This document shows positions 3,734-13,143 of a stretch of 64,000 bases of DNA, in pieces (position 1 is the first letter of the stretch; each line of letters begins with the position of its first letter). The notes under the pieces are model-generated. The model ran no database searches. It had not been told where the DNA came from and saw nothing but the letters and a program-made list of their open reading frames with translations. Origin of the DNA: a virus. A program made the position numbers and the translations under genes. The stretch lies in IMG/VR virus record IMGVR_UViG_3300050015_000276, positions 96,001 to 160,000 of that record; one strand, given 5' to 3'.

Positions 3734-4294
3734 GGTATTTATACACGTCAACAAAAAAATGTAAATCCTTTATTACCAAATAAATTTACATTTATGCTCA
3801 CCAAGTTACCAGAATTATCAATGGCAGCTACAAGCTGTAATATTCCTGGTATTACTTTGCCAAATTGGAAACAATTGAGTCAATTTAATCCCATTCCACG
3901 ATCCGGTCTTAATCTTGAATATGAAGATTTAGAAGTCCGGTTCATTGTTGATGAAGATTTCAATAATTGGAGTGAACTTAATAATTGGATGAGATTGATG
4001 GCACTCTCAAAAGATAGTACTGAATATCAACAAGTAAAATTAGAACAATTACAACCTGGTCCTGAAGGTGGATTAGTATCAGATGCCCAAGTTGTTGTTC
4101 TCACTAACCAATCAGTTGCTAATATGGTATTTTACTTTCGTGATGCTTTCCCAGTTTATCTCAGTGAAATAGCTTTAACAAATTCAACAGATGATCCTAG
4201 TGTAATCGAATGTGTTGTACGTTTTGCCTACTCATACTACGAGTTCGAAAATGTTAATCCAGAACCATTAGACCCAACAGAACAGTCCTCATAA
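3716..4294 (+). CDS. gp3: Tail completion/sheath stabilizer protein (T4 gp3-like)
   Basis: N.L.PNKF.F.L..LP, NIPGITL and L.YEDLEVRFIVDEDF.NW motifs; syntenic upstream of uvsY-uvsW. Confidence 0.8.
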   Translation: MSPTLSGIYTRQQKNVNPLLPNKFTFMLTKLPELSMAATSCNIPGITLPNWKQLSQFNPIPRSGLNLEYEDLEVRFIVDEDFNNWSELNNWMRLMALSKDSTEYQQVKLEQLQPGPEGGLVSDAQVVVLTNQSVANMVFYFRDAFPVYLSEIALTNSTDDPSVIECVVRFAYSYYEFENVNPEPLDPTEQSS

Positions 4295-4302
4295 ATAGTT
4301 TT

Positions 4303-4494
4303 ATGAATGATATTTTATGGATTGTTTTTAAAGTTTCTGAAGTGGTGGAGTTTCAAGGTGTTTTTGAAAATGAGAAAGATGCTATTGACGCTTGCCGTGA
4401 TGAACGATATTGCATTGGTCCGGTAAAATTAAATGTTTCATTACCTGATAAGTGTGAAGTATGGCCTGGTTCTTATTTTCCAAAACAATTATAA
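4303..4494 (+). CDS. Hypothetical protein
   Basis: ORF in operon orientation, preceded by CATAAATA. Confidence 0.6.
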   Translation: MNDILWIVFKVSEVVEFQGVFENEKDAIDACRDERYCIGPVKLNVSLPDKCEVWPGSYFPKQL

Positions 4495-4508
4495 TTATGG
4501 AGTAATAA

Positions 4509-4946
4509 ATGAATCTTAAAGAATTGCAAGATAAGATTAAAATTGATTTAAAAATACAAAGCGATGAACTAGTATATGAATCTGTGAGAACACCTGATCT
4601 ACATAATGAATATTCCAAAATATACATGTCTGAAAAAATGGCCTTTAAAAAGCTAGAACGTGAATATGACATCTTATATCTCCAACAGTGGGAATATTAC
4701 AGAAAAAAGGCACCAGAAAGTTCCTATGTTGCAAAACCTCTATTAAAGAAGATATTGGATTCTGATATTAAAATTTATCTTGCGGCAGATCCTGAAATGC
4801 AAGAACTTAGAGCCCAAATAGATTCAAAAGAAGAAATAGTTGATTTATTGAAGCGTGCCTTAGACCAAATATCCAACCGACAATGGATTATTCGTAATTC
4901 TATTGAATATCTAAAGTATCTTGGAAATGAAAAGGGCCCTGCATAA
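4509..4946 (+). CDS. uvsY: Recombination mediator UvsY
   Basis: TPDLHNEY, YLAAD.E, LK.ALDQISNRQW.IRN.IEY motifs; GGAG RBS. Confidence 0.85.
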   Translation: MNLKELQDKIKIDLKIQSDELVYESVRTPDLHNEYSKIYMSEKMAFKKLEREYDILYLQQWEYYRKKAPESSYVAKPLLKKILDSDIKIYLAADPEMQELRAQIDSKEEIVDLLKRALDQISNRQWIIRNSIEYLKYLGNEKGPA

Positions 4947-5059
4947 ATTAAAAATAACGCATTTTTATTCAATTTTAATTAAATACACAGTAAATTACCC
5001 CGTGTTTGTATAAACAATTCACTGGTGAGTCTAGGAATGTCAAGGAAAGTACTTTTATA

Positions 5060-6595
5060 ATGTTGCCTGAAAACACAATAATGGTCCGTAAGAAAAACGA
5101 AACCTATTTAGAAGTTCTTGCGGTCGATTCTATTATGATGACCCTCCGTGATTTTTTCAGTTTCTTTGTACCTGGTCATCAGTTCATGGAGAAATTTCGT
5201 AAAAAATTCTGGGATGGTAAAATTTATCTTCTGAATAGAAATAATGGTGAATTGTATTGTGGTCTCCTCCAACATTTGAAGGAATTCGCACGTCAACATG
5301 AATATGAAATTGTATATACAGATGGTGATCTGGATATCGAAGAAGAATTTTCTATCCAAGAAGCCGAAGACTTTGCAACCAAGTTAAATCTTCATGTAAA
5401 ACGTATAGAGGATGGTAAAGAAGTTTATATACCTATCACGCCACACGATTATCAAATAGCCGCTTTCAGACATGCAGTACAAACAAAACGGTGTTTGTTA
5501 TTATCTCCCACTGCTTCCGGAAAATCTGCCATTTTATACCTTCTCATTCGCTACTATCAAGAACAAATAGAATCAAATCGTAAGATTTTACTTATTGTTC
5601 CTACAGTAAATTTGGTAAGTCAAATGTATACGGATTTTGGTGAATATTCTTATGATAATACCTGGGATGTACGAAATGAAGTACATATGGTTTATCAAGG
5701 AAAAGAAAAAGGATCCGAAAAACAAATTATAATTTCCACATGGCAATCATTATATCAATTACCTCTTTCTTATTTTGAACAATTTGACGTGATCTTAGGT
5801 GATGAATGCCATCTTGCCAAAGCACAATCTATTTCATCAATGTTACAAAAGTCCTATAAAGCCCAATATCGTATAGGAACTACAGGAACTCTTGATGGAT
5901 CAAAATGTAATAAATTAGTTTTGGAAGGACTTTTTGGTAAGGTATATAAAGTAACCACAACTGTACAATTACAAGAAAAAGGTACCTTGGCACAAATGAT
6001 GATTAATTGTTTGATGCTTCATTATCCTGAAGATGTTTGTAAGAAAATGAAAGGTGCCAAATACCAAGATGAGGTTTCTTTTATTGTTGAACACGAAGGA
6101 CGAAATAAATTTATTCGAAATCTATCACTTTCACTAAAAGGAAACACATTAGTACTTTTCAATCTCGTTGAACGCCATGGAAAAATATTATACGAAGACA
6201 TTTTAAACCATGCCAAAGATGGTAGGAAAGTTTTCTTTATTTCAGGAAAGGTTGATGTTGTAGACCGAGAATTATTCCGTAAAATTGTCGAAACTGAATC
6301 CGATGCCATTATTGTGGCGAGTCTGGGAACATTTTCTACTGGTGTAAATCTCAGAAATCTTCACAATATTGTGTTGGCATCACCATCTAAATCTAGAATC
6401 CGTGTATTGCAGAGTTTAGGACGAGGATTACGTCTTGGAGAAACTAAAGACACCTTATATCTTTTTGACATATCAGATGATCTCCAATATAAAACATATA
6501 AGAACCACGGACTAAAACATTTTCTTGAACGGATGAAAATTTATAACAGCGAGAAATTTTTGTATAAAATCTACAAAGTGAGATTAAAATCCTAA
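5060..6595 (+). CDS. uvsW: SF2 DNA helicase UvsW
   Basis: WDGKIYL, SPTASGKS (Walker A), DECH, QSLGRGLR. Confidence 0.92.
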   Translation: MLPENTIMVRKKNETYLEVLAVDSIMMTLRDFFSFFVPGHQFMEKFRKKFWDGKIYLLNRNNGELYCGLLQHLKEFARQHEYEIVYTDGDLDIEEEFSIQEAEDFATKLNLHVKRIEDGKEVYIPITPHDYQIAAFRHAVQTKRCLLLSPTASGKSAILYLLIRYYQEQIESNRKILLIVPTVNLVSQMYTDFGEYSYDNTWDVRNEVHMVYQGKEKGSEKQIIISTWQSLYQLPLSYFEQFDVILGDECHLAKAQSISSMLQKSYKAQYRIGTTGTLDGSKCNKLVLEGLFGKVYKVTTTVQLQEKGTLAQMMINCLMLHYPEDVCKKMKGAKYQDEVSFIVEHEGRNKFIRNLSLSLKGNTLVLFNLVERHGKILYEDILNHAKDGRKVFFISGKVDVVDRELFRKIVETESDAIIVASLGTFSTGVNLRNLHNIVLASPSKSRIRVLQSLGRGLRLGETKDTLYLFDISDDLQYKTYKNHGLKHFLERMKIYNSEKFLYKIYKVRLKS

Positions 6596-8091: not shown

Positions 8092-8438
8092 AATTTAATG
8101 ATGTTGCCGATATTTGTTTAATAGTAGAAGAAATATTAGGAATTGAACCGATCAAAGTATTACATTTCTTATCCAAAGAAACTGATATGTGTATGTCAAC
8201 TTTCGATTTTGCATATGATATTATTACAGATAAGAGTACAAGTTATAAAGGAACAATAAATTCTAATATTTTACGGCGTCAAAAATCACCAAAAGGAAAT
8301 TGGGTTAATATAGATGGAAATAAAGAACAAAATTTAAATGCTCTTGATATGGCTCAGAAATATGGATTGTCGCCTCATTATTTTCGTTTAATTTTACGTG
8401 GAGAAAAAGAAACATACAAAGGTTGGCATCTTGAATAA
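8088..8438 (+). CDS. Hypothetical protein with C-terminal NUMOD1-like DNA-binding motif (possible homing endonuclease remnant)
   Basis: C-terminus AQKYGLSPHYFRLILRGEKETYKGWHLE; very AT-rich. Confidence 0.45.
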   Translation: MKFNDVADICLIVEEILGIEPIKVLHFLSKETDMCMSTFDFAYDIITDKSTSYKGTINSNILRRQKSPKGNWVNIDGNKEQNLNALDMAQKYGLSPHYFRLILRGEKETYKGWHLE

Positions 8439-9489
8439 AATAGCAATTTTGACAGACCAACATTTTGGAGCCAGATCTGATAGTTTAGTTTTCTTAGATT
8501 ATTTTGAAAGATTTTACCAAGATATATTTTTTCCTTTTCTAAAGAAAAATAAAATTACTGAAATAATTTCTTTAGGTGATATGTTTGAGAGAAGGAAATT
8601 TTGTAATTTCTTAACATTAAAGAGAACACGCAAAATGTGGCTTGAACCATTATTAGAAAATAATTTTAAAGTTCACTGTTTATTAGGAAACCATGATGTT
8701 TATTATAAAAATACTAATGATGTTAATTCAATAAAAGAAATTCTTGGAAATTATTCAAATTTTATAATTTATAATGAAACTGAAGAAATAATGATCGATG
8801 ATACCAAGGTACTATTAGTTCCTTGGATTAACGATGAAAATCGAGAAACTTCTTTAAAAATCATTAATGAAACTGATGCCAAATATTGTTTTGGACATTT
8901 AGAACTTAACGGATTTTTAATGAATCGAGGTCAAAAATCAGAAGTTGGATTTGATGCTGAGCCTTTCAAAAAATTTGAAATGGTTGCAACGGGACATTAC
9001 CATCACAAATCGGATAAAGAAAACATTCATTATCTAGGATCCCCATATGAGATGACCTTTGCAGATATTAATGATCCTCGGGGTTTTCATATCTGGAATA
9101 CCAATACAAAAGAATTGGATTTTCATAAAAATCCCTATAAGATGTTTTATAAGATTTTCTATGATGATAAGGATCAACCTCTTTCTTCGTTGTTAAAGAA
9201 AATAACCGACAGATATCAAGATACCTATGTCAAAGTGGTAGTACATAACCGAACCAATCCTGAATATTTTGACAAATTCATGGAACATTTGTTTTCTATG
9301 CAACCTGCCGATATTAAAATTGAAGAGGATATATCAATAGATGCACCAGATATAATTGTGGATATGGCTGAAGACACACTTACCATTTTAAATAAGTATG
9401 TTGATACTTTGGAAGTTGATATTGACAAAGATAAAATTAAAGAGGAATTACGTTTGCTTCATATGGAAGCCGTAAATATGGAAAGATAA
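8431..9489 (+). CDS. gp47: Recombination endonuclease subunit gp47 (Mre11/SbcD-like); start uncertain (8398 GTG or 8431 TTG)
   Basis: KIAILTDQHFGAR, GD.FERR, GNHD, GHLEL, GHYHH phosphoesterase motifs. Confidence 0.92.
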   Translation: MNKIAILTDQHFGARSDSLVFLDYFERFYQDIFFPFLKKNKITEIISLGDMFERRKFCNFLTLKRTRKMWLEPLLENNFKVHCLLGNHDVYYKNTNDVNSIKEILGNYSNFIIYNETEEIMIDDTKVLLVPWINDENRETSLKIINETDAKYCFGHLELNGFLMNRGQKSEVGFDAEPFKKFEMVATGHYHHKSDKENIHYLGSPYEMTFADINDPRGFHIWNTNTKELDFHKNPYKMFYKIFYDDKDQPLSSLLKKITDRYQDTYVKVVVHNRTNPEYFDKFMEHLFSMQPADIKIEEDISIDAPDIIVDMAEDTLTILNKYVDTLEVDIDKDKIKEELRLLHMEAVNMER

Positions 9490-9846
9490 ATGACAGTTCC
9501 TACTTTTACCGCATCAATTTTTATTGGTCTCAAACGTGGTTATACTGGTAAGGAGATGACAGTACAAGAAGTTGAAGACTTTTTGCAAGAAAAAGTAGAT
9601 AAAATTGGTTTGTGTGTTTCTATTACACCCACGCGATATGTCTATACTAATGGAAACGAAAATGGTTTAATAATTGGTCTGATAAATTATCCACGTTTTC
9701 CGTCTGATGAATATAAGATCCGTATGTGTGCTCTGGAATTAGCTGGCGATTTAATGTTGTTTTGTAAACAAATGCGTGTTTGTGTTGTATTTCCTGATAA
9801 AACTATTATGCTTTCTAATAGTGAAGAAATTGAAAAAGTAAAATGA
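9490..9846 (+). CDS. Hypothetical phage protein
   Basis: Coupled ORF between gp47 and gp46. Confidence 0.65.
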   Translation: MTVPTFTASIFIGLKRGYTGKEMTVQEVEDFLQEKVDKIGLCVSITPTRYVYTNGNENGLIIGLINYPRFPSDEYKIRMCALELAGDLMLFCKQMRVCVVFPDKTIMLSNSEEIEKVK

Positions 9847-10061
9847 CAATCTTTAAACGTATAAAGTGGAAGAATTTACTCGGAACTGGTGACCAATTTA
9901 CAGAAATTGACCTTAATAAATCACCAACTACTTTAATTTATGGAACCAACGGAACTGGAAAGTGCCTTGCAAATTCCACAATTGTTAGTATCTTTGAAAG
10001 TGAAGAAAATAAAGCATTTAAAGAATTTAGAAATTTTATTAAAAATAAGTCTCTTTCTTAA
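9843..10061 (+). CDS. gp46: gp46 N-extein (40 aa) fused to a short N-intein (32 aa, starts at Cys codon 9963)
   Basis: IFKRIKWKNLLGTG...TLIYGTNGTGK ends at the Walker A Lys, followed by intein block A CLANSTIVSI. Confidence 0.88.
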   Translation: MTIFKRIKWKNLLGTGDQFTEIDLNKSPTTLIYGTNGTGKCLANSTIVSIFESEENKAFKEFRNFIKNKSLS

Positions 10062-10072
10062 ACCGTTATAAG

Positions 10073-10080
10073 CATAAATA
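10073..10080 (+). promoter_or_regulatory. Late promoter motif for the endonuclease
   Basis: CATAAATA 5 nt upstream of the ATG. Confidence 0.55.
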
Positions 10081-10085
10081 TATGT

Positions 10086-11186
10086 ATGAATTTTAAAAGA
10101 AATCGTACATATGAAGAAAAATTAATTGATGCGTTGGACAATAATATTAAAAATATTGAACCTTCCAAAAGAGAAAATATTTTACAGGAAATGAAAACAA
10201 ATCTCGTAAGTGAAAATGTTATCAAAATACGAAAATATATTGTAGAAAAATATTTTGGAAGTCTACCTGAAAATGGAGCAAACACAGCGATTTATTGGAT
10301 TGCAAGAGGCTGGGAAGAATATACAGCAAAACGAAAATCTTCAGAATTTTTAGCCAAGAAAGGAAAGAGAAAATCACCTTTTCAAGTTTCGTTTTGGTTA
10401 GAAAAAGAAAATCCAAATACAGGTAAAAAGTTTACTGAACAGGAAGCAGAATATAAAGTAAGATCTCAAAGACCAATTAATTCAGAATATTGGATAGAAA
10501 AAGGATATTCTGAAGAGGAATCAATTAAATTAGCTTTAGATAAAAAAGATTCTAACAATAAAAGTGGTGCAAAAGCTAGTAGGAATAGATCTGGATTATC
10601 TATACGAAAAAGCAGTAAACGATGTGCTGAATATTGGATAGAACGAGGTAAGACAAAAGAAGAGGCTATTGAAGAAGTTAAAAAAAGTCAAAGTACTTTT
10701 TCTTTGGAAAAATGTATACTTAAGTTTGGTGAGGAAGAAGGAACTAAAAAGTGGCAAAAAAGACAAGACAAATGGATAAAAACTTTAAATTCTAAACCTC
10801 AAGAAGAAAAAGATAGAATTAATAGATCAAAAGTTGCTTTCGGTGGTATTTCAAAAGCCGAAAAATTTATAATGTCTAAAATAATTGATATTATTCCAGA
10901 ATTGCAAGTTCAATATAATATTGGAAATTATATTTGTGATTTTGTTTTGAACAAAAATGCTGTGGAATATTTTGGAGATTATTGGCATTGTAATCCTAAA
11001 AAATATAAACCAAAATTCATTAATAAAGTTAGTGGTTTGTCTGCTGAAGAAATTTGGGAAAAAGATAAGAAGCGAATAAAAGTTTATGAAGAAAATGGAT
11101 TCACAGTTAAAATTATTTGGGAAGATGACTTTAAAAAAAATCCTGAAAAAATTATATTGGATATTTTAAGTTTTTTGAAATCATAA
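10086..11186 (+). mobile_element. Free-standing Vsr/DUF559 (EDxHD-like) homing endonuclease between the split-intein halves
   Basis: C-terminal CDF.....AVEYFGDYWHCNP, KDKKR....E.GFTVKIIWE.D; N-terminal YW..KG.SEEE repeats. Confidence 0.8.
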
Positions 11187-11187
11187 A

Positions 11188-13143
11188 ATGATTTGTACAC
11201 TTCAAGATATTTATAACTTTTATAAAGAGTTTCCACAATATAGGGGACAACTTTCGGTTGAAACTCGTTTTGGATATTATCCAATTTTAGCTTGCGAATA
11301 TACGGCATACAATTCAGATGTTTATTTGGTAGAAATAGAAAATAATCATCTACTTTGTTCGCCAGAACATGAATTGTTTGTCAACGATTCATGGAAACAT
11401 GTTAGGGATATTCATTTAGGAGATAATATAAAAACTAAAGATGGTAATGAGAAAGTGAAAATATCCTTACTTCCGCAAAAAATGGATTTAATGGATTTAC
11501 AAGTTGCTGAAGTACATGAATTTTATGCCAATGATATTGTTTCTCATAATTCAACTTTATTGGATGCATTAACATTTGTATTGTTTGGAGTACCCTTTAG
11601 GAATGTTAATATTCCTATGTTAGTAAATGATACTAATGAAAGGGACATGGTTGTTGAGATTGAATTTAATTCTGGAAGAACAAACTATAAAGTCCGACGT
11701 GGATTAAAACCGCGAGTATTTGAAATTTATGCAAATAATGTGATGCTAGACCAGGAGTCTAAGGCAAAGGATTATCAGAAGTATCTTGAACAAAATATCC
11801 TTAAGTTAAATTTGAAATCATTCAAACAGGTTGTGGTACTTGGAAGTGCATCTTTTACACCATTTTTACAATTGTCTGCGGTTGAACGCCGAAATATTAT
11901 TGAAGATCTTTTAGATATTCAGATTTTTTCAGCCATGAATCTTGCACTTAAAGTAAAAGTGGCAGAAATGAAAGAGGAATACATTTCTCTTTCTAATTCT
12001 ATCGAATTACAAACGGAAAAGATTGCGCTTATAAATGCTTATCTTAATAAATTAAAATCGGATAATGTGAATGCTATATCTGATAAGCGTTTAATTATTA
12101 ATGATAATAATCAACAAATAGAAACAATTTCAGATCAGATCAGAGGTATTGAGGAAGAAATTTCAGAGTTATTTACAACAATCGATGATAAGGAAAAAGT
12201 TCAGGGTAGAATTCAAAAATTACAATCTGCGGAAGACAAATTAGAGACCAATAAAATTAAGGTTGTTAAAGAAAAAAAGTTTTATGAAGAAACAAGTAAT
12301 TGCCCAACATGTAAACAAGGTATTGATGATACATTTAAAAATGATATAATATCTCAAAAAACAGTTTTAATAAAAGATATTGAAAAGGCTTTGGTATCTT
12401 TAACAAAAGATCTGAATACTTCAGAGGCTAGGTTAGTTGAGATTTTGGAAATTACAAAAAATATTGAGAACAAAACAAATGAGATTAGACATTTGGAAAG
12501 TACTGTCCGCGCCATCGATTCCTTCATTAATAAAGTCGAAGTTGAGATTGAAGATCTCCAAAAGAATAATGGTAACACGAAAGAACAGGAAACTAAATTA
12601 CAAGATCTTGAAAGTGATATGATTTCTTTGGCATCGGAACGTGATATTTTGATTTCTAGAAAGCATTCATTGGATATTATTTCTGTGTTATTGAAAGATA
12701 CTGGAATTAAGACCAAGATTATTAGACAGTATCTTCCAATCATGAATAAATATGTCAATAGGTATTTGGCCGATATGGATTTCTTTGCCAACTTTGCACT
12801 GGATGAAAATTTTCGAGATACAATTCACATTCGTGGAAGTAAAGAAAGAACCTATTACCAATTAAGTGAAGGACAAAAATTAAGAATTGATTTGGCACTT
12901 TTATTTTGTTGGCGGGATATAGCTAAAATTAAAAATAGTGCAAGTACTAATCTTCTCATAATGGATGAGATATTTGAACGTAGTATGGATGCTACCGGTC
13001 TTGAGGATTTATTAAAAGTAATTCATAGTTTGAGTAGGGATATTAATATTTTTATTCTCAGTCCTCAGGGTGATTTGTTGATTGATAAGTTTATCAATAC
13101 TATTAAGTTTGTAGAAGATCATGGATTTTCCGTGATTGAATGA
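11188..13143 (+). CDS. gp46: C-intein (121 aa, 11188-11550) fused to the gp46 C-extein (Rad50/SbcC-like ATPase)
   Basis: Block B-like CSPEHELF, block F DLQV, block G IVSHN|STLLDAL; Zn-hook CPTCKQ; signature LSEGQK; Walker B LLIMDE. Confidence 0.9.
   Translation: MICTLQDIYNFYKEFPQYRGQLSVETRFGYYPILACEYTAYNSDVYLVEIENNHLLCSPEHELFVNDSWKHVRDIHLGDNIKTKDGNEKVKISLLPQKMDLMDLQVAEVHEFYANDIVSHNSTLLDALTFVLFGVPFRNVNIPMLVNDTNERDMVVEIEFNSGRTNYKVRRGLKPRVFEIYANNVMLDQESKAKDYQKYLEQNILKLNLKSFKQVVVLGSASFTPFLQLSAVERRNIIEDLLDIQIFSAMNLALKVKVAEMKEEYISLSNSIELQTEKIALINAYLNKLKSDNVNAISDKRLIINDNNQQIETISDQIRGIEEEISELFTTIDDKEKVQGRIQKLQSAEDKLETNKIKVVKEKKFYEETSNCPTCKQGIDDTFKNDIISQKTVLIKDIEKALVSLTKDLNTSEARLVEILEITKNIENKTNEIRHLESTVRAIDSFINKVEVEIEDLQKNNGNTKEQETKLQDLESDMISLASERDILISRKHSLDIISVLLKDTGIKTKIIRQYLPIMNKYVNRYLADMDFFANFALDENFRDTIHIRGSKERTYYQLSEGQKLRIDLALLFCWRDIAKIKNSASTNLLIMDEIFERSMDATGLEDLLKVIHSLSRDINIFILSPQGDLLIDKFINTIKFVEDHGFSVIE

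Follow-up and report, generated by a model that had tools for sequence, protein, structure and literature searches.

Natural split inteins with a short N-terminal fragment (IntN) are few, and comprise AceL-TerL and GOS-TerL, VidaL and PolB16. Recombination-dependent replication in T4-like phages is driven by gp46 and its partner gp47. Here we describe a locus at which gp46, a protein of the SbcC/Rad50 type, is encoded in two pieces that appear to be divided by a split intein of the short-IntN kind, with an endonuclease gene between them. The locus lies in a 64,000-nucleotide stretch of DNA from an uncultured T4-like phage, hereafter the window, which corresponds to bases 96001–160000 of the IMG/VR record IMGVR_UViG_3300050015_000276 (179,687 bp, with direct terminal repeats, rated complete).

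Fractured genes with split inteins were described by Dassa 2009 (PMC2677866) in gp41, NrdA, NrdJ, IMPDH, DnaE, ligase, terminase, and one unknown protein; the background on gp41, IMPDH, NrdJ and terminase given in a preliminary description of the window agrees with that account. The terminase intein of that study has a C-terminal fragment (IntC) of 122 aa, and an SbcD-like gene is fractured there without an intein (PMC2677866). As at the gp46 locus, the 3′ end of the endonuclease gene overlaps or abuts the start of IntC in these genes, and endonuclease-free alleles exist. The differences are that gp46/SbcC is not among their hosts, that the split lies at the canonical endonuclease-insertion site in all their inteins but one (IntN of 88–105 aa), and that the hairpin and TATAAATA box found upstream of the endonuclease in most, though not all, of their loci (PMC2677866) are not convincingly present at the gp46 locus.

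Two natural atypical split sites have been distinguished, namely S1, right after β2 (VidaL, PolB16), and S2, after α1 (AceL-TerL, GOS-TerL) (PMC13014065). The reviews of atypically split inteins that we consulted, including the latter, name TerL, VidaL and PolB16 only. Our literature search, which did not reach the VidaL papers (Burton 2020; Sekar 2022), returned no paper that links gp46 to a split intein, nor one of relevance for SbcC or Rad50. The element thus represents a known kind, the fractured gene with a split intein, in what is apparently an undescribed host, gp46; as set out below, it is also widespread but mechanistically ordinary.

The interruption of gp46 at the Walker A motif

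The break in gp46 between the Walker A lysine and serine, as reported in the preliminary description, was recovered with all three open reading frames (ORFs) at the same coordinates. The N-piece (9843–10061, + strand; 72 aa) consists of a 40-aa extein (9843–9962), which ends in the Walker A sequence GTNGTGK, and a 32-aa IntN (9963–10061), which comprises β1, β2 and a helical tail. As claimed, the latter begins directly after GTNGTGK, with Cys1, and runs from CLANSTIVSI through FESEENKAFKEFRNFIKNKSLS to its final KSLS and the stop codon TAA (10059–10061). The C-piece (11188–13143, + strand; 651 aa) consists of a 121-aa IntC (11188–11550) and a 530-aa extein that starts with Ser+1 in STLLDAL (Ser122 of the C-piece; 11551–13143). 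IntC opens with a β3/α1 segment, TLQDIYNFY, followed by the expected block B SPEH (residues 58–61; 11359–11370), block F DLMDLQV (residues 100–106; 11485–11505) and block G VSHN (residues 118–121; 11539–11550).

The two exteins together account for a whole gp46. The N-extein aligns with residues 1–40 of cyanophage Syn1 gp46, and the C-extein provides a complete SbcC/Rad50-type body, in which both the CxxC zinc hook and the ATPase lobe of the C-terminus are present, with 41–43% identity to gp46 of cyanophages and other T4-like phages. On the SbcC profile phrog_77 the N-extein covers positions 295–333 (E 1.5e-12) and the C-extein positions 334–953 (E 7.9e-127), with neither gap nor overlap. Joined, they give 570 aa, and in the alignment with the uninterrupted 576-aa Syn1 protein no gap falls at the junction (LIYGTNGTGKSTLLDALTFV vs LIVGENGAGKSTILDALTFS). 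The expectation that removal of the intein restores an intact P-loop, GTNGTGK-ST, is therefore borne out both by the abutting profile positions 333|334 and by the ungapped Syn1 junction.

The N-piece and the middle ORF share one reading frame, with the TAA alone between them, while the C-piece lies in the +1 frame, and so a contiguous reading would need a change of the stop codon plus a frameshift. This bears on the possibility that gp46 is in truth contiguous and intein-bearing, and that errors of sequencing or assembly made it look split. Contiguous relatives do exist, and in one relative (L007/L008) the pieces differ by a mere +1 frame shift beside a run of A. In the window, a 1.1-kb endonuclease gene that has start and stop codons of its own divides the halves, both changes would be required at once, and the identical layout recurs in dozens of independent contigs from many samples and assemblies. 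The preliminary description had considered an artefact unlikely, and we regard its probability, like that of a chance arrangement, as negligible.

Judged by its motifs, homology, conservation and the predicted fold of a homolog, the gp46 element is a class-1 intein. An alignment of 35 family members shows no variation in S-P-x-H, D-L-x-D, V-S-H-N and Ser+1, and the block B SPEH aligns with CSEEH of gp41-1 and CTPDH of NrdJ-1. Among 34 distinct IntN sequences of relatives, Cys1 was found in 34 and Thr6 in 33, with further conservation of I/V at positions 8 and 10 and of F..FL at 21–25. A phmmer search with IntC matched the intein structures gp41-1, NrdJ-1, Mtu RecA and VidaL (E 0.59). The AlphaFold2 model of a contiguous homolog (L016; mean predicted local distance difference test score, pLDDT, 91.3; predicted TM-score 0.85) had its best fold matches in the PDB with NrdJ-1 (E 1.3e-12), VidaL, Npu and Ssp DnaB, gp41-1 and Mtu RecA, and all 20 top PDB matches listed are intein structures with the Hint fold. 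The contiguous mini-inteins of L016 and L018 (147 aa) are collinear with IntN plus IntC of the window, and the sole variable stretch is the linker at the position of the window's break. By sequence and fold, NrdJ-1 and gp41-1 (8ubs, 6qaz) are the closest relatives with solved structures. Like the gp46 intein, they come from uncultured, cyanophage-like fractured genes and have the Cys1/Ser+1 chemistry, but they are split canonically (IntN ~88–105 aa, IntC ~35–50 aa) and lie in other hosts.

The position of the break was placed on this fold. The order of elements in the L016 model is β1 (CL), β2 (TVIDI), a short extra helix, β3 and α1 (KDIVDFYDNY), and the extra helix, equivalent to the tail of IntN, is modelled with pLDDT above 90. 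In phmmer alignments AKTTIKDIVDFYDN corresponds to NrdJ-1 residues 17–30 (GKTTIKEVVEIFDN; E 1.9e-06) and, in Ssp DnaB, to the stretch from residue 16 onwards (GKRVSIKDLLD), which is the canonical β3/α1 segment; its version in the window, TLQDIYNFY, opens IntC. Since this segment sits at the start of IntC, IntN holds only β1, β2 and the extra helix, and on the homolog model and these alignments the gp46 intein is of the S1 type, with its break after β2. The S2 site was ruled out because α1 is encoded in IntC rather than in IntN. The preliminary description had assigned the architecture to the AceL/GOS-TerL class: the lopsided short-N/long-C form stands, while the split site differs. AceL-TerL, GOS-TerL and the consensus Cat intein share with the gp46 intein this form and their occurrence in T4-like phages, and an endonuclease likewise separates the halves of the GOS locus, but they break after α1, whereas the gp46 intein keeps α1 in IntC.

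The nearer parallel by split site is VidaL/PolB16 OarG (6vgv; PMC10189870; PMC13014065), with a short IntN, a long IntC and a break between β2 and β3/α1. VidaL ranked second among the structural matches of the L016 homolog (E 3.8e-12, TM 0.74–0.83) and is likewise cysteine-dependent, but the sequence identity is only ~20% and the host protein apparently differs. IntN of gp46 is also longer, with 32 aa against 16 in VidaL and 15 in PolB16, because a conserved helical tail follows β2. Due to the conservation of F..FL at 21–25 in the family, this tail probably helps the fragments to dock.

Predicted trans-splicing of gp46

Taken together, we consider it very probable that the sole gp46 of this phage is interrupted, between lysine and serine of its Walker A motif, by a naturally split class-1 intein, and that this intein is removed by trans-splicing; the endonuclease gene in the break probably serves in homing. 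In the predicted course, the 72-aa N-piece and the 651-aa C-piece would be translated separately, and β1-β2 of IntN with its short docking helix would complete the Hint fold of IntC. Cys1, the block B histidine, the penultimate histidine, the terminal asparagine and Ser+1 would then carry out standard trans-splicing, in the order of thioester formation at Cys1, transfer to Ser+1, cyclisation of Asn121 and acyl shift. The product would be gp46 of 570 aa, with the GTNGTGKST P-loop made whole (junction ...NGTGK-STLLDALTFVLFGVPFR), able to work with gp47. The Vsr-like endonuclease in the break would probably spread the element into endonuclease-free or intein-free alleles.

The same residues bear on a different possibility, in which the intein halves are docking modules only and the gp46 fragments assemble non-covalently, without splicing. 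Such assembly has a precedent in the endonuclease-fractured NrdA of phage Aeh1 (PMC3045599), and formation of the peptide bond in gp46 is inferred rather than computed. Docking, on the other hand, needs none of Cys1, the block B histidine, the penultimate histidine, the terminal asparagine or Ser+1, all of which are invariant at 40–55% identity; furthermore, an unexcised intein would leave 153 residues between the lysine and the serine of the P-loop. We therefore regard docking without splicing as improbable.

Several points weigh against trans-splicing as laid out above. The Hint fold was modelled on the contiguous L016 intein, which is 53% identical to the IntC of the window, and not on the fragment complex of the window itself. 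In the window's IntN, phenylalanines stand at 19, 22 and 25 against a consensus of F21, F24 and L25, and so its docking helix is shifted or divergent. No clear ribosome-binding site was found upstream of the IntC start codon. Among related split loci, dN/dS was 0.14–0.28 for IntC, 0.11–0.51 for IntN and 0.13–0.41 for the extein, but dS was saturated (>1) in every pair, which makes these values rough upper bounds. Finally, splicing, association of the fragments, endonuclease and homing activity, and translational coupling are predictions from sequence and models.

Read as upper bounds, these ratios indicate that purifying selection acts with similar strength on IntN, IntC and the extein; in several pairs the conservation of IntC exceeds that of the host protein, e.g., in L075 vs L081, with 66% vs 44% identity. 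This is relevant to a scenario of decay, in which insertion of the endonuclease killed both the intein and gp46, and the phage does without gp46 or uses SbcCD/RecBCD of the host. Decay is predicted for inteins and endonucleases by homing-cycle models, and truncated endonuclease ORFs do occur in relatives, as short ORFs of 105–135 aa (L064, L041) or as two fragments (L076). At the window's locus all three ORFs are intact, and this gp46 is the sole one of a complete genome; in addition to the purifying selection on IntN, IntC and extein, about 22 related loci have stayed split after loss of the endonuclease and keep every motif. On this evidence, decay of gp46 appears very unlikely, and trans-splicing remains the reading that we prefer.

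Relatives of the gp46 intein and their history

Many homologous split gp46 loci, both with and without an endonuclease gene, were found in metagenomes. The relative search gave 36 clusters of ~650-aa proteins that combine IntC with gp46, as well as several relatives of 717–722 aa in which N-extein, intein and C-extein form one polypeptide; contiguous mini-inteins at the same gp46 site measure 142–178 aa. A HMMER search with IntC of 1.84 billion cluster representatives returned 440 matches at E ≤ 1e-3 and, under the stricter limit of E ≤ 1e-10, 103. The best 150 representatives include no fewer than 61 SbcC-type proteins that carry IntC at the extreme N-terminus and no fewer than 16 contiguous forms. 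Scanning IMG/VR for the pattern of the family alignment yielded 80 loci, which were classified by script. An upstream N-piece (IntN 21–40 aa, IntC 122–130 aa) was present in 42 of them, and ~9 further split loci were recognized by a looser Walker A pattern, so that at least 50 of the 80 viral contigs carry the split state, with or without an endonuclease gene; five are contiguous, and the remainder are unclassified or involve other host proteins. The arrangement is not rare: most members of a large metagenomic family are in the split form.

By the spacing between the stop codon of IntN and the start of IntC, the split loci fall into two groups. About 22 have 19–355 nt and no full-length endonuclease ORF, and about 20 have ~900–1500 nt, mostly with one ORF of 270–519 aa (in L041 and L076, fragments only).

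Among deposited phages the family was not encountered. Megablast of the locus against GenBank phages gave no match, and megablast and tblastn found no relative of this gp46 intein in 50,697 deposited phage records; the tblastn matches of IntC were weak, to inteins in terminase, DnaE and tail proteins. The best of them, LR756501, was rejected as a gp46 relative, being a terminase with its own lopsided intein. A word-indexed search with the 72-aa N-piece returned only the query itself, and the N-pieces of relatives were taken from the sequence flanking their IntC-gp46 loci; at ~20 related loci the N-piece patterns gave no match within the retrieved flank.

Some related loci depart from the common layout. 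Upstream of IntC-gp46 in L003/L058 (IMGVR_UViG_3300027896_000328, 1–2567) there are an antisense GIY-YIG-like ORF and a fragment of an IS605-type TnpB, and the 2.5 kb that extend to the contig end yielded no N-piece; it may be encoded elsewhere. In L007 (ORFs 3787–4017 and 4001–5974), as in L008, the N-piece and C-piece overlap by 17 nt in the +1 frame without an endonuclease; this split, seen in two samples, is a single frame shift from a contiguous intein, beside an AAAAAAG run. In a divergent clade (L062:860-2227, L079:703-2058, L068:1977-3275) the N-piece ORF is 430–455 aa rather than ~70 aa, with the Walker A segment fused to a large N-terminal domain and an IntN that ends in a conserved GF[LI]P.ELK. 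Next to the contiguous gp46 intein relative of L018, the C-terminal piece of a UvsW-type helicase (L018:125-961) starts with a canonical short IntC (...NGHLVHN|CHRL), which makes it a second intein, split in the typical way, in an adjacent gene.

In the intein tree, which was built on 120 columns and has mostly unsupported branches, only the starred L057/L059 clade was used: the contiguous L057 and L059 are nested inside a well-supported clade of split forms. Across the tree, endonuclease-bearing and endonuclease-free loci are interspersed. These patterns fit repeated gain and loss of the endonuclease and occasional changes between split and contiguous states. Because the split state outnumbers the contiguous one by ~3:1 among cluster representatives, persists after loss of the endonuclease and contains contiguous forms nested in split clades, it may perhaps be selected. 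One could thus imagine that the split is maintained by selection and that the separate 40-residue P-loop peptide acts as a post-translational gate on the Mre11-Rad50 nuclease, rather than being a neutral scar; we put this forward as a speculation that is rather unlikely to hold.

The endonuclease gene and the genomic setting

A free-standing gene of 366 aa (10086–11186, + strand) occupies the interval from the IntN stop (10061) to the IntC start (11188), on the same strand as both halves. Its product matches, at the C-terminus, the Pfam family DUF559, which is Vsr-like (E 9e-06; 26 bits, with a cut-off of 20.6). An AlphaFold2 model (pLDDT 86) was compared with the PDB by Foldseek, and the catalytic domain of I-Bth0305I (3r3p) ranked first, with Vsr in fourth (1cw0) and fifth (1vsr) place; the probability was 1.00 for these matches, yet their E-values are weak (0.02–0.045) because the entire 366-aa model was searched. 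Together, the DUF559 and fold matches bear out that an endonuclease gene intervenes between the halves. A phmmer search against PDB sequences gave nothing useful, and only the fold search yielded matches.

The nuclease domain spans approximately residues 270–366 and carries the motif CDF...VEYFGDYWH...EKD, in which a glutamate precedes the histidine by seven residues, the spacing between Phe62 and His69 of Vsr; a glutamate that is invariant at the site matching Vsr Phe62 has been described for this endonuclease family (PMC2677866), and the EDxHD family was named by Taylor et al. (PMC3239194). The N-terminal two-thirds of the protein are helical, with predicted DNA binding and three xYWxxKGxxEEEA repeats, in which Pfam gave no NUMOD match. 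I-Bth0305I (3r3p; PMC3239194) likewise combines an N-terminal DNA-binding region of repeated motifs with a C-terminal Vsr-like nuclease, and the D...E...D.WH...D residues of the EDxHD family are present in the gp46-locus protein; I-Bth0305I lies in a recA intron, whereas the gp46-locus gene is free-standing in an intein break. These features fit a homing endonuclease of the Vsr-like (EDxHD) type.

One base separates the stop codon of the endonuclease gene from the start codon of IntC, and in 15 of 18 related loci the 3′ end of the endonuclease gene overlaps or abuts the IntC start (–38 to +7 nt). At 11178–11194 there is a perfect 7-bp inverted repeat (AAATCAT AAA ATGATTT) whose stem holds both codons; the local fold there was not significant (z –1.19), nor was a hairpin over the start codon of the endonuclease gene (z –0.77). 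The preliminary description gave the middle gene a late-promoter motif of its own, which did not exceed chance expectation. The sequence CATAAATA (10073–10080, + strand), 5 nt upstream of the ATG, matches the T4 late-promoter box TATAAATA at only seven of eight positions, and the window holds 11 exact copies of the box where 9.5 are expected, which is no enrichment.

The endonucleases at the gp46 break in the window and in L060, L054, L023, L032 and L089 have a common N-terminal repeat module (xYWxxKGYSEEEA, QSTFSLEKCI..KYG), and at least three C-terminal domains occur with it: Vsr-like, a YPNS...RxDF...IE type and a YYKIGIT type. The pattern looks like swapping of nuclease domains on a single DNA-binding module. 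The endonuclease of L049 is unrelated (GIY-YIG plus NUMOD3), and this was the only one of nine related intervening ORFs that Pfam named; the YPNS/RxDF/IE and YYKIGIT types have no Pfam name.

The pieces of gp46 belong to a series of five consecutive ORFs on the + strand, which begins with gp47 (8398–9489; 363 aa), the Mre11/SbcD-like nuclease partner of gp46 (Pfam Metallophos, E 4.4e-07), and a conserved small ORF (9490–9846; 118 aa; phrog_4848, E 9e-23), followed by the N-piece, the middle ORF and the C-piece. The stop codon of the small ORF overlaps the start codon of gp46 (ATGA). The order gp47, small ORF, gp46 is also found in cyanophage Syn1 and in related loci, and in L004 a similar small ORF lies between gp47 and the N-piece. 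The GC content is 35.7% in the window and 27–30% at the gp46 locus. Across the complete 179,687-bp genome, gp46 is single-copy.

The genome carries three inteins in total, in gp46, ThyX and terminase, the latter two outside the window. The gene for ThyX, the flavin-dependent thymidylate synthase (G000:C1 ~164777-166672, equal to L012:988-2883; + strand; PF14890, E 1.5e-12), has a contiguous intein with an HNH-type endonuclease insert, and its junctions (...NTHRQF|CLDGDS...GLVVHN|SRNSASSRA) lie inside a conserved ThyX motif. The gene for the terminase large subunit is fractured too (L019, G000:C1:72500-79500; ORFs 63–443, 503–1492 and 1438–2727), with a split intein of the S2 type, in which IntN starts with Pro-Cys and contains helix α1 and IntC ends VLSHN|CEFLGSG; a 329-aa Vsr-like endonuclease overlaps the IntC start there by 55 nt. 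Comparison of the gp46 IntC with the terminase IntC of the same genome revealed no significant similarity (E 0.15), and the endonucleases of the two loci have the nuclease core alone in common (28% identity over 85 aa).

In conclusion, in this phage and in many uncultured relatives the ATP-binding loop of gp46 is predicted to exist only after splicing, and an essential function would thus ride on a selfish element. At a single site, four states occur, namely the contiguous intein, the split intein without an endonuclease, the split intein with a Vsr-like endonuclease, and the split intein with other nucleases, and this series offers natural material on the breakage of inteins and on the recruitment and swapping of endonucleases. 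The gp46 family would amount to a so far undescribed natural collection of S1-type split inteins, dozens in number and divergent in sequence, and its many natural pairs with Cys1/Ser+1 chemistry may be of use for protein engineering. The presence in one phage of the S1-type gp46 pair and an unrelated S2-type terminase pair suggests, from their sequences, a naturally orthogonal set.

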